Shown here one piece after another: positions 37,018 to 42,408 of a DNA stretch of 64,000 nucleotides. Under the pieces are notes generated by a model. The model saw nothing but the letters and a program-made list of their open reading frames with translations, did not search any database and was not told the DNA's origin. The position numbers and the translations under genes are program-made. Position 1 is the first letter of the stretch. Each line of letters starts with the position of its first letter. This stretch comes from Rickettsia typhi (lineage in GTDB: Bacteria; Pseudomonadota; Alphaproteobacteria; Rickettsiales; UBA1997), in contig CAMAWV010000001.1 in NCBI GenBank assembly GCA_945862075.1, forward strand, positions 2,721 to 66,720. The letters run 5' to 3'.

Positions 37018-40000
37018 GTGTTTCAATCTCTTAAAAAATATATCATTATTTTACTATCTGTTTTGTTGCTAGTTTTTTTTGTTTGTGAAAAAGCAAAAGC
37101 AGCCATGGTTGGTGGTTGCACCGACGATCCTGGAGACGGATCTATAATGGTTACCGCTAAACCTGCTACTATTTTTTCTAATGGCTCCGATGATTTATGG
37201 CAAACACAACTTTCTGATTGGCAAGAAACTCCCTATTATACAAATGGCGAAGATATCATAATAAATATTGCCATAAGAAACTCAGGCTATATCAATGCTC
37301 ATGGCGATAATGACAATAAGCTAAAATATCCTTGTAACATTTGCTCAAAAATTGTTAAATACAATACAAATGGTTCAATAGCCTATCAAACACCTAATTG
37401 CATTTGTGGTCCAAAAATTTATGTTCCACCCATACCTCAAGTTCAATCTTTTAGATACTGGCCTGGCTCAAAAGAAATATTTAAGCCAATCGAAACCATA
37501 AAACCAGAATGCGAAATAATTCTCGGTTACCCAGAAAAGGCACATTATGGCATAATAGATAATAACCAAAGAATTGCCTGTAGAAAAGGTTCTAGCAATG
37601 AGATAATAGAAATATCCAGTAATCATGTAGATATTGTGTCACCATTATTAAAAACCGATATAAATTCACAAGAATACACTTGTATCCCAATGGAATGGGC
37701 ACTAAATTTAGGCACTAACCATCCTAATTTTATTGCATCAAATTCTAAAATTACAACTTTCTTAAATCAAAATTACATAGATAAAGGTAAATACTATAGT
37801 AGGGCAACCCACTTACTTACTACAGATTTTAAAAAAATTCCCGATGAAAACGGTCAATCTGGTTATGAAATTGTGCATTTTCCTATAAATTACTATGAAA
37901 AAGAACTAAGTACCACAGAAACAGATCAAGCTAAAATTACCCTACTAAAAGATGTTAATTATCACCATACAAACAGCTGCAATGCTTCAAATGGCTTTAG
38001 TTTATATCTTGGTTTATTTCCAGAAAATTCTGATATGCCCGGATATAACGGCAAAATTTATGCTTATCATCTTTATTCTTTTAACCAAATATGCCGAATT
38101 TATCGCAATGGAATTTGTGAAAATGCAGTAACTCAATTTAAATTATCAAAATCAAATCTAGATTCTATATTGCCAAGTTCTTTTTTAGATAATAATAACA
38201 ATCCAATATCTATACCACATGGATATAAAATAAAATTTAAAATCTACGATAATTTTTACACATCTAACGAAGTGCGAGATCTATACAATGTCACTATAAC
38301 AAGTGGCATAGAAACTCAAAACTATGCAAAACCAAATCAAGATGAAGGGCTTTTTACTAATGTAAAATCTAAAATTGATGCAATTTTACAAGGTGCCCAA
38401 AGCTATAATTTTAATATTTCCAATATCAATTATGCTTCTTTATTTATATCCCCTGTTTATGCCGCAGATATAATTGAAGAAGCCACAATAGAAAATGCTA
38501 AAAAAAATGGTTTGATACGTGTTACTTACGAAAATTTTATAGTAAAAAATATAACCATTATTAGATATACATTAATTTTATTTTTGATGTTTTATGCCAT
38601 AAGCTACTTAATGGGATTATCAGAAATAAATCAAAAAGAATTAATACTGCGCCTATTCAAAATAGCGATAGTTCTTGCTTTTCTCGATCCTGCTTTAATT
38701 GATTTAACAACAAAAACTAAAATTTCACTAGATCCTAGCAAAACAATTCAAAAACAATATTCATTTCAAACAACTGCCACTTTGGGTTTTTTATTTTATC
38801 AAAAATATATTATTAATACTGCCATAGGAGGTCTAAACGATCTTATAGCAATAATTACTAATTTTTGCAAAGCTCTTAATCTAGACAGTGCTTCCGCTAT
38901 GCAAACAGAAGTTTCTTTGAGTAACAATGTTAATTTTGCCTATTTCGATAAAATATTAGAAAAAATCTTTTCAATAAAAACAGTAGGAGCAATAGTAAGT
39001 GCCATTTTCACTAAATGGCTAATTGGAGCGGTGCTTTTAGTGGTATTTTTATATTTTTTAGTAAAAACAATTTTTAAACTCCTAGTGACCTATATTTTAA
39101 ATTGGTTGCAAATTATCTTAGCATTGTCTTTAGGACCTATTTTCTTTTTATTTTTACTTTTTTCAAAAACGAAAGGGTTTTTCACTAAATGGATTGCTTT
39201 TACATTTGCCAGAGCCCTAGATATAGTTATTTTGGTAGCTCTTACCTTTCCGTTTATTGGCATCATATATGTTGATTTATTAGCTATTATTGGCGAAGAA
39301 TCTTGTTTAAGAGCAATTGGCCCTTCTTTTTTAAGACTTGAAGTATGGATTCAAAACGATAATCGTAACTCAGACTTAAATAATTTTTTTAGCTATATAT
39401 TTGCGTTAGCAAAAGATATTGCTTTAGTTTACATGATAAACCTAATCGCTTCTTATGCTCCTGAAATTTCTGGTAAAATTATTAATATTGCCGATAATCA
39501 AAACTCCGCAGGAAACTCAAAAGCAGCATCTAACATAGCAGCACAAACCACTGCTCAAGCCTTAAGTACCATAGCTTCTGGTATAAAATTTGCCAATTCT
39601 TCTTATGTTGGCGGTATGGCAAAATCTTATGTCAAACAAGGAGCTCTTGGCTTAAGCAACTTTGTTGGAGCAACTCGTGTTGCAACATTTGCCAAAAATA
39701 CCGCATTGAATCTTGGAAACCAGTTATACGAAGGCTTAACACTTAGAAATGCCGCTCAAATTCTTTTAGGCAAAGAAACCGCTGAAGCTATTTTTGGCAA
39801 AAAAAATACTACCAATACTGGCAGAGATGGCGGTGGTTCTGATGGCGGTAGCGGTGGTTCTGATGGTGGTAGCGGTGGTTCTGATGGTGGTAGCGGTGGT
39901 TCTGGCGGTGCTTTTGCTAGCAGTAGAACTAGTGCCTCTGGTAGCACTCCTGCTGATGGTAGCGGTGTTCCTGGCGGTGCTTTTGCTGGTGGTGCTCCTG

Positions 40001-42030: not shown

Positions 42031-42408
42031 ATGTTTCGTTTAATCATAATTTTTATTATCAGTATTTTAGTAGGAAAGGTACTACATATTTTTTTTTCTA
42101 AAACATATGCAGGCAAAAAAAAAGCAGAATATGTAGTGTTCTATATCAAGCAAGAGCAAGGGGCAATTGGTTGCACAAGTATAGAGCGATATAAACAAGT
42201 TGTAAAAGCATATCAAGAAAATAATCTAAATTCTATCAATAGCTATTTACAAAAAAAAGAGTGTTTTTTATATAAGAAAAATCATCAATTTTCAGCATTA
42301 GATAGCATTTGTCAAAACAATAATCCTAACGAACTTGCCGAGTTTACGGTGCCACACTTATTGTTAAAAAATATCTATCTTCCTTGTTTTGCCATTGCCA
42401 GAAATTAA
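42031..42408 (+). CDS. Hypothetical small membrane-anchored protein downstream of the giant VirB6-like gene
   Basis: 125-aa ORF starting 6 nt after the upstream stop. It has an N-terminal TM helix (LIIIFIISILVGKVLHIFF) and four Cys in the soluble part. I recognise no family. Confidence 0.4.
   Translation: MFRLIIIFIISILVGKVLHIFFSKTYAGKKKAEYVVFYIKQEQGAIGCTSIERYKQVVKAYQENNLNSINSYLQKKECFLYKKNHQFSALDSICQNNNPNELAEFTVPHLLLKNIYLPCFAIARN

Follow-up and report, generated by a model that had tools for sequence, protein, structure and literature searches.

A 1668-aa VirB6 protein of the RvhB6 type and its probable 125-aa partner in a Rickettsiales genome

A 64,000-nt stretch of contig CAMAWV010000001.1 (assembly GCA_945862075.1, positions 2,721 to 66,720), in the following called the window, carries on its + strand a gene for a protein of 1668 amino acids (aa) with a GTG start and a TAG stop (37018-42024). 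A gene for a 125-aa protein follows at 42031-42408 (+). The best explanation for this locus, to which we assign a probability of about 0.85, is that the giant protein represents an extended VirB6 like those of the rvh system in Rickettsiales and is encoded in one unit with the 125-aa gene. Its VirB6 domain is flanked by an N-domain of ~450 aa and a C-terminal part of ~840 aa. The unit belongs to the extended-VirB6/RvhB6 class already known from Rickettsia and Anaplasma. What sets it apart from the described cases is its location away from virB3-virB4, its old and mostly single-copy lineage, a conserved N-domain without Pfam match and a clade-specific partner gene. The locus extends a known class of proteins by a small step; it does not constitute a new system and overturns nothing.

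The central part of the giant protein (aa 481-830, 38458-39507, +) comprises approximately six hydrophobic helices located within aa ~507-812, the sequence L-G-P-I-F-F...S-K-T-K-G-F-F-T-K-W725 and a conserved C763. Pfam family TrbL/VirB6 (PF04610) matches it at aa 602-743 with E=3.5e-5 and 24.1 bits (gathering cutoff 25.9 bits). A precomputed PF04610 match exists for five of the seven orthologs (P0002, P0004-P0007) as well as for the more distant P0008. Residue conservation was counted over a MAFFT alignment of 123 non-orthologous relatives. W725 is present in all 123, P707 in 122, and T718 and C763 in 120 each. An essential role in VirB6 has been described for the Trp that matches W725 (PMC2653234). 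The best profile match in the PDB is TrwI, the VirB6 protein of R388, on the motif L-G-P-x-F-x-L...T-x-x-F-F-x-x-W; it is weak (E=0.41). A VirB6-like core had been proposed in an earlier model-made reading of the same letters (the original prediction). The Pfam match, which stays just below its cutoff, the BLASTP homology to two further VirB6 proteins of the window (see below) and the invariant W725 bear this out, and judged from its sequence the core is a genuine VirB6/TrbL domain.

The relatives of the protein form a large group. In an exhaustive HMMER search with aa 1-945, the number of representative clusters was 450 at a threshold of E<=1e-3 and 117 at E<=1e-10; they are mainly proteins of 1200-2400 aa. 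Only few relatives bear a name, which then reads 'type IV secretory pathway VirB6-like protein' or 'virB6'; these originate from Rickettsiales, Rickettsiaceae, Pelagibacterales and alphaproteobacterial metagenome-assembled genomes (MAGs). The closest ones outside the ortholog group reach BLASTP E-values of ~1e-45 to 1e-49 over aa ~280-890. A family hidden Markov model (HMM) was built from 132 relatives including the giant protein itself, which, as one of the training sequences, scores 508 bits over aa 6-871 (HMM positions 18-698). When 159 sequences, i.e. representative clusters plus the three VirB6 proteins of the window, were searched with this HMM, 135 aligned from the N-terminus, among them the Rickettsiaceae virB6 P0117. 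By these alignments, the giant protein fits without peculiarity into a large VirB6 subfamily of the lipoprotein type, whose members are mostly single genes in metagenomic alphaproteobacteria. Its VirB6 lineage is old and as a rule represented by one copy.

The N-domain (aa 29-480, 37102-38457, +), assigned to the periplasm, contains G-C-T-D-D-P-G-D, the pairs C106-x-x-C109 and C128-x-C130, Cys residues 188, 222, 321, 359 and 367, and the juxtamembrane stretch Y-D-N-F-Y-T-S-N...Y423-N-V-T-I-T-S-G. As stated in the original prediction, it is rich in Cys: Twelve are found between aa 23 and 367 of the giant protein, and each is invariant in 8 orthologs. In ten of the columns (C34, 106, 109, 128, 130, 188, 222, 321, 359, 367), over 100 of the 123 relatives have retained the Cys. 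The family median is 11 N-domain Cys, which together with the conserved C763 after the fifth helix gives an even number. Across the subfamily, the N-domain is well conserved with respect to the lipoprotein signal, the ten Cys columns and the motif Y-x-D-N...Y-x-V-x-F-x-G. It is matched by no Pfam or NCBIfam family in the giant protein and by no Pfam family in the ortholog records examined. Among orthologs, the N-domain has a mean identity of ~64-69%.

Two short sequence likenesses that had been noticed in the original prediction proved to be family-wide elements of the HMM consensus, which reads 'llsscde..gCveadefd' at the N-terminus and 'iiyDryYsDNyge-YnveflsGvg' in the juxtamembrane region. 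The first is the resemblance between CTDDPGDG and the CTEGDDFGEF of another VirB6 protein of the window. In the family, the lipobox Cys is followed after 2-4 residues by G-C-(V/T/F)-x-x-D-x-F-D, and both G-G-C-T-D-D-P-G-D of the giant protein and Q-G-C-T-E-G-D-D-F-G-E-F of the other one (paralog C) fit this pattern. The second is the juxtamembrane strand Y-x-(V/I)-T-(I/V), here LYNVTITSG. K-I-Y-D-N-F-Y-T-S-N-E-V-R-D-L-Y-N-V-T-I-T-S-G of the giant protein and E-A-Y-N-N-N-T-G-K-Y-E-V-T-V-K-V of paralog B align in register to the consensus. Among the 123 relatives, D411 and N417 are kept in 118 each, Y423 in 116 and G430 in 115.

The N-domain is preceded by an export signal (aa 1-28, 37018-37101, +). 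It is composed of a hydrophobic segment (aa 5-23), a degenerate lipobox V-F-F-V-C23 and then A-K-A|A, in agreement with the cleavable-looking signal peptide predicted originally. The orthologs have L-S-S-C, and the Cys aligned to C23 is kept in 102 of 123 family members, usually in L-[ST]-[SG]-C. The window allele and one 96%-identical strain carry V-F-F-V-C (window 37063-37119), which arises from three nonsynonymous changes and no frameshift. The predicted export of the giant protein is well supported. Lipidation of the window allele is doubtful and may have been lost in the strains with V-F-F-V-C. Possibly, signal peptidase I cuts after A-K-A, or the lipobox-like V-G-G-C34 is used instead.

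Two other VirB6 genes are located in tandem 9 kb downstream of the unit (51083-62744, +): B (51083-56491, 1802 aa) and C (56493-62744, 2083 aa). Both pass PF04610 (B: 49.6 bits, 5.5e-13; C: 74.4 bits, 1.4e-20). The original prediction regarded the three genes as diverged paralogs. They do have the VirB6 core in common: BLASTP gives E=1e-24 between the giant protein and C (28% identity over aa 496-837), E=3e-7 between the giant protein and B and 3e-50 between B and C. However, the giant protein comes from a separate subfamily. Because its BLASTP matches to this subfamily (1e-45 to 1e-49) are far better than those to B or C, it is, by sequence comparison, not a near sibling of the pair. The N-domain and the tail of the giant protein have no significant BLASTP match in B or C (all E>0.05; B vs. 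C flanks E 0.003). With B and with C, it has homology in the core and in a single short motif per pair, but not elsewhere. The family HMM covers B only from residue 676 (HMM 298-686, 153 bits) and C only from residue 1096 (HMM 345-678, 203 bits); a 12-bit match at the N-terminus of C is non-significant. It appears that the N-domains of B and C are different ones; the Cys framework of the giant protein is not detectable in them. B lacks a lipobox (L-I-L-C-A) and has 20 N-domain Cys. C has a canonical lipobox L-I-S-C26, then the family sequence G-C-T-E-G-D-D-F, and 43 Cys ahead of its core. In P0145, a relative that resembles C, the alignment to the family HMM starts at position 159. Proteins of the C type may therefore contain the same N-domain with very large insertions.

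Behind the core, constraint changes along the protein. An Ala/Gly/Thr/Asn-rich linker (aa 831-945, 39508-39852, +) is moderately conserved. It is followed by a Gly/Ala/Ser/Pro region (aa 946-1045, 39853-40152, +; G 41%, A 21%, S 13%, P 9%) encoded by tandem repeats of 21 nt (x3.6) and of 48 and 63 nt (x3). Thus, the Gly-rich repeat region of the original prediction is repetitive at the DNA level, too. Its length varies: It comprises 100 aa here, 146 aa in the 96%-identical strain (46 extra residues) and 69-139 aa in the other orthologs. Three overlapping ORFs at 39756-40232 (-), 39766-40191 (-) and 39794-40186 (+) lie in other frames of this repeat. Their products of 130-158 aa are of low complexity, and the ORFs have the appearance of a side effect of the GGT/GCT repeat rather than of genes. 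The remaining ~620 aa (aa 1046-1668; K 11, L 10, Q 10, E 9, T 9%) correspond to the predicted Q/K/E-rich tail and are divided into a variable K/Q/E/L/T-rich part (aa 1046-1535, 40153-41622, +) and a conserved C-terminal module (aa 1536-1668, 41623-42021, +). The former includes the predicted (PVQTT)3 at aa 1196-1210 (40603-40647), a 15-nt repeat (x3.1) at 40601-40646. The latter displays L-K-L-M-G-V-K-Y-K-S-D-R-N-K, Y-x-x-L-E-K-P-L and a basic end, K-S-F-K-S-L-F-G-R-I-K-K-A-I-E-K-S.

Mean identity among orthologs amounts to 64-70% in N-domain and core, 52% in the linker, 33% in the Gly-rich block, 18-48% in the tail segments and 50% in the last 133 aa, where almost no indels occur. The orthologs are 1494-2049 aa long, and in P0004 and P0007 tail modules are duplicated internally. 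The ratio of nonsynonymous to synonymous substitution rates (dN/dS; Nei-Gojobori, three pairs) is 0.17-0.43 in N-domain and core, 0.68-1.13 in linker and Gly block, 0.57-0.83 in the tail, where the values are inflated by alignment error, and 0.46-0.69 in the C-terminal module. This is the tail turnover across orthologous loci that was expected if the C-terminal parts are the diversifying region. By these measures, constraint drops sharply from core to tail, the tail is the fast-evolving part, and its evolution appears to be relaxed or diversifying, which is not proof of positive selection. As had been claimed, the tails of the three paralogs are unrelated: An HMM of the tail (aa 1261 to end) matches the protein's own orthologs alone and neither P0015 (a distant ortholog, see below) nor B, C or the wider family. 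The assumed coiled-coil-like character of the tail did not hold up in two crude, uncalibrated heptad tests (fraction 0.0 and z=1.7; z-values for B and C 3.7 and 2.5).

The basic end deserves separate mention. The last 20 aa (window 41962-42021) have a net charge of +5 in the giant protein and of +4 in P0015, and all orthologs lie between +3 and +7, at a family mean of -0.4; only 11% of the members reach +3. The basic C-terminus is found in the same lineages as the 125-aa partner. It might act as a signal for recognition or bind to membranes as an amphipathic helix. The C-terminal motifs of the orthologs do not resemble that of P0015 to a statistically significant degree. From such a tail, the giant protein could be understood as a vehicle for delivery or display: The core would be the anchor, the tail a payload that is either threaded through the channel or cleaved off and acts as adhesin or effector on the target cell, the basic end its signal, and the 125-aa protein an adaptor or chaperone. 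A long, hydrophilic, repeat-bearing and fast-evolving tail would suit this purpose, as would a basic end that departs from the family mean in all orthologs and P0015 and accompanies the partner. Moreover, it has been proposed that extended VirB6 proteins of Anaplasma have their C-termini released or exposed at the surface (PMC7648143), and the C-terminal domain of F TraG has been proposed to extend through the mating pore (PMC7555446). However, Pfam and NCBIfam reveal neither a cleavage site nor an effector domain nor a match to a known secretion-signal model in the tail, the likeness of the C-terminal motifs to P0015 is not significant, and a structural role is still compatible with the same data, so that both may coexist. 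We consider the vehicle function possible but rather unlikely.

In the 125-aa protein, a single N-terminal hydrophobic helix (aa 4-22) precedes a soluble part of ~100 aa, in which four Cys (48, 78, 94, 119) are invariant. Thus, a membrane-anchored ORF beginning 6 nt past the TAG of the 1668-aa ORF, as predicted, is present, and both frames are intact. In 8 of 8 ortholog loci having downstream DNA, this gene follows the giant gene at a distance of 6-12 nt. The most instructive case is P0015 (locus L008), a 31-37%-identical ortholog with the whole N-domain. Its neighbourhood differs (aroK, aroB and yhdP upstream, ftsY downstream), and after 7 nt it is followed by a 124-aa gene that is 48% identical to the partner and has kept all four Cys. 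A sequence search and then a profile search of 5.8 billion proteins for further homologs found the same seven clusters only, and all seven come from lineages carrying this ortholog group. By tblastn, no homolog was detected in five loci of distant members (L009-L013); in the distant members P0165 and P0020, a Tim44-like gene and aconitase follow instead. With a dN/dS of 0.10-0.14, the 125-aa gene is the most constrained part of the unit and under stronger purifying selection than the giant gene. Because the adjacency survives a changed neighbourhood, the gene is restricted to this ortholog group and its dN/dS is ~0.1, there is good comparative evidence for the 125-aa gene as a dedicated partner of the giant protein, a role that the original prediction had suggested. 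It seems that one clade of this VirB6 lineage acquired a strictly co-inherited, strongly constrained small partner.

Searches for a known family were negative. In Pfam and NCBIfam, no credible family was found for the 125-aa protein (best DUF4158, E=0.013, 15.8 bits vs. a 27.4-bit cutoff). An AlphaFold2 model had a predicted local distance difference test score (pLDDT) of 55.7, and Foldseek against the PDB returned nothing below E=2.9. In Agrobacterium, virB6 is followed by virB7, which encodes a small lipoprotein. The partner was rejected as a VirB7, since there is no Cys in or just after its N-terminal helix; the first Cys is residue 48, so a lipobox is lacking.

Gene order also recalls exclusion systems. 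Like F TraG-TraS or SXT TraG-Eex, the pair might serve exclusion or self-protection: VirB6 would probe a neighbouring cell, and the small protein would block attack or transfer among kin. In both cases an extended VirB6 is directly followed by a small membrane protein (PMC7555446), and basal Rickettsiales have been proposed to kill bacteria via rvh (PMC11077975), which would make self-protection useful. However, TraS, with 3-4 predicted helices, is a polytopic and very hydrophobic protein that diverges fast, with 17% identity between plasmids (PMC7555446), whereas the partner has one helix and a ~100-aa soluble domain, a dN/dS of 0.10-0.14 and 48% identity where the giant protein has 31-37%. 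In addition, the members of a specificity pair would be expected to vary together, but in this unit variation is found in the tail and not in the partner. TraS/Eex was therefore rejected as identity of the partner on topology and evolutionary rate, and an exclusion function of the pair is improbable.

The start of the giant gene is sound, because GTG is kept in 5 of 5 orthologous loci and the N-terminal sequence gained by this start (M-x-x-x-L-K-K-x-x-I-I...) is conserved among the proteins. Thus, the GTG-initiated ORF proposed at 37018 is confirmed by comparison. A promoter-like sequence, TTGACA-16 nt-TATTAT (36941-36968, +), is located 50 nt upstream of the GTG, just past the dapF stop. It matches the consensus at 11 of 12 positions; in five orthologous loci, TTGACA is invariant and the -10 region conserved. 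Based on consensus match and conservation, it is a candidate promoter. Giant gene and 125-aa gene most likely form one transcription unit.

These data also bear on the proposal that the 125-aa ORF is an unrelated neighbour and the giant ORF a decaying extra paralog without a current role. It could draw on the fact that neither protein is functionally annotated, that the small one belongs to no Pfam or NCBIfam family and that the lipobox is degenerate in the window strain. However, the window has a G+C content of ~32%, so that an intact 5-kb frame (37018-42024) is very unlikely to occur by chance. In addition, both genes are under purifying selection, their adjacency outlasts a change of neighbourhood, and the promoter-like site and the GTG are conserved. 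Pseudogene status of the giant ORF was rejected on dN/dS and conservation, and decay of the locus is hardly credible.

Downstream of the 125-aa gene and ahead of the convergent pstS, which ends at 42687, a hairpin is present at 42420-42451 (11-bp stem with one mismatch, 10-nt loop). The terminator predicted behind the unit is only partly borne out: The hairpin is stable, but on the + strand (-17.1 kcal/mol, z=-3.9) only TTTT follows, and the signal is stronger on the - strand toward pstS (-20.8 kcal/mol, z=-5.3), where TTTTTTACATTTTT (T6-ACA-T5) follows. A consensus terminator scan did not call this hairpin, and no conservation of its sequence was found in orthologous loci. It is at least as likely that it terminates the convergent pstS or works in both directions.

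How might an extended VirB6 and its partner act? For R388, the structure as summarised in a 2025 nomenclature review (PMC12857230) has only the two N-proximal helices of VirB6 (TrwI) spanning the membrane, with the rest forming a periplasmic pentamer that docks VirB5 and pilin. By analogy to TrwI, the first two hydrophobic helices of the giant protein (aa ~513-561) would anchor it in the inner membrane. The remaining helices, located behind the second one and in the periplasm, would become part of the machine's central stalk, a pentamer. After export, the N-domain would reside in the periplasm, in most relatives tethered by the lipid anchor. Since rvh systems lack VirB5, the extra N-domain and the small partner plausibly supply functions of the periplasmic stalk or in pilin recruitment. 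The even Cys count (11 in the N-domain plus C763) is a weak hint that the C763 loop is on the N-domain side and is compatible with disulfides. As the partner is highly conserved, it would bind to a conserved part of the giant protein, i.e. N-domain, core or the last 130 aa, and not to the variable tail. The long C-terminal tail would be the exposed, diversifying part. This would match VirB6-3 and VirB6-4 of Anaplasma, whose C-terminal repeat extensions are strain-variable, surface exposed and trypsin-accessible on intact bacteria (PMC7648143). In its most far-reaching form, a lipid-anchored, disulfide-framed N-domain and the 125-aa partner would replace VirB5 at stalk or tip and in VirB2 recruitment, and the tail with its basic C-terminus would pass the channel to touch target cells. 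If true, specificity for the target would be determined by the numerous giant VirB6 copies, in the manner of interchangeable 'heads'. This extended scheme is unlikely to hold as a whole.

Several points weigh against the identification as an rvh-type VirB6 acting with its neighbour. The PF04610 score stays under the cutoff, and the profile match to TrwI, a solved VirB6, is weak. AlphaFold2 on aa 1-900 (alignment of 6 sequences) gave a mean pLDDT of 30.2, an unusable model, so that topology and stalk assembly are presumed by analogy. In the classical Agrobacterium topology, the C-terminus of VirB6 is cytoplasmic, and a cytoplasmic tail of the giant protein is possible accordingly. For the partner, the four invariant Cys favour a periplasmic soluble domain, but the charges after its helix (K24 and K29-31 vs. 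R3 before it) favour a cytoplasmic one. Co-transcription is presumed from spacing and the conserved upstream promoter-like site. Finally, a complete machine is not evident from the window: Among the ORFs of the 64-kb window scanned against Pfam, there was no virB3, virB4, virB8-B11 or virD4.

Comparison with known systems supports the assignment to the RvhB6 class. In rvh systems, several divergent RvhB6 proteins with large flanks exist, the genes are scattered in islets and VirB5 is absent (PMC2653234, PMC8035066, PMC11077975). VirB4, VirB8 and VirB9 are duplicated in such systems. The window has the same appearance: There are several divergent copies per genome (three in the window), which are alike only in the VirB6/TrbL region with the essential Trp, and they have large N- and C-terminal flanks. 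Genes of the type IV secretion system occur in scattered islets with virB2 standing alone, and the origin is Rickettsiales. In contrast to RvhB6 of Rickettsia (668-1154 aa), the giant protein is larger, and unlike in the rvh arrays its gene is not located behind virB3-virB4. A precedent for this is the unlinked virB6e of Orientia (PMC2653234). A dedicated downstream partner like the 125-aa protein has not been described for rvh.

VirB6-3 and VirB6-4 of Anaplasma and Ehrlichia likewise have a core and then a very long hydrophilic, partly tandem-repeat C-terminal extension of strain-variable length (PMC7648143). However, their genes are part of a sodB-virB3-virB4-virB6 operon, their repeats take up much more sequence (up to 9935 aa), and the extensions have no sequence similarity to that of the giant protein; surface exposure was shown there and is inferred here. 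TrwI and Agrobacterium VirB6 share with it the multi-helix hydrophobic domain and, in the weak match described above, the L-G-P...W motif, but are only ~300-340 aa long, have neither N-domain nor tail and work with VirB5, which rvh lacks. TraG of the F plasmid also combines a VirB6-like membrane domain with a large C-terminal domain and is directly followed by the small membrane protein TraS (PMC7555446). The partner differs from TraS in its single helix, its soluble Cys-containing domain and its slow evolution, and no sequence similarity was found, so that the TraG-TraS resemblance is only positional. According to the 2025 review, the role of extended VirB6 domains is not yet known (PMC12857230). 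Why Rickettsiales keep several giant divergent VirB6 proteins without VirB5 is an open question, for which this locus offers concrete handles.

Orthologs were found in three genome loci, all titled 'MAG: Rickettsiales bacterium'; these are titles given by the depositors without independent phylogenetic placement. The order pyrE, rpmB, virB2 (-), efp, dapF, giant gene, 125-aa gene is common to the three genome loci and further metagenomic contigs. Where contigs are long enough (L004-L006), they also share pstS (-), pntB, argH, relA/spoT and glmS (-), followed by the next VirB6 gene. Thus, the giant gene follows efp-dapF, and the pair B and C follows glmS, which is on the opposite strand. The virB2/TrbC pilin gene (35046-35408, -; 120 aa; Pfam TrbC 2.8e-13) is located two genes upstream of the giant gene and is divergent from efp; its position is kept in L001, L003, L004 and L007. 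A CagX/VirB9 gene is found near the distant ortholog in L008. The window encodes DAHP (3-deoxy-D-arabino-heptulosonate 7-phosphate) synthase, prephenate dehydratase, aspartokinase, PyrF and other biosynthetic enzymes, so the genome is not strongly reduced. The source organisms appear to be environmental Rickettsiales retaining many biosynthetic genes; therefore, the pair could be studied outside obligate intracellular pathogens. Rfam and tRNA scans of the window gave no matches.

Some observations concern more distant loci and other genes of the window. Distant subfamily members (L008 5539-14833, L009 5557-15988 and the P0017 contig) are all located shortly downstream of aroK-aroB, which encode shikimate kinase and 3-dehydroquinate synthase. 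This suggests that aroK-aroB is the ancestral position and that the clade of the window moved the gene behind efp-dapF. In L009 and L011, the genes behind the VirB6 gene are arranged alike and encode a Tim44-like protein, aconitase, a ribosome hibernation factor and S21. Plain synteny is the probable reason, but the Tim44-like membrane protein takes the place of the 125-aa gene. In the window, dprA (62831-63892, +; TIGR00732, 8.8e-65) starts 87 nt past the stop of the last VirB6 paralog. As RvhB6 proteins were earlier suggested to act in DNA uptake (PMC2653234), this neighbourhood is worth a look. Finally, a 213-aa protein encoded at 10025-10666 (-) matches the plant-type leucine-rich-repeat family PF24758 with E=3.9e-6, at the cutoff, and could be a eukaryote-like effector candidate.

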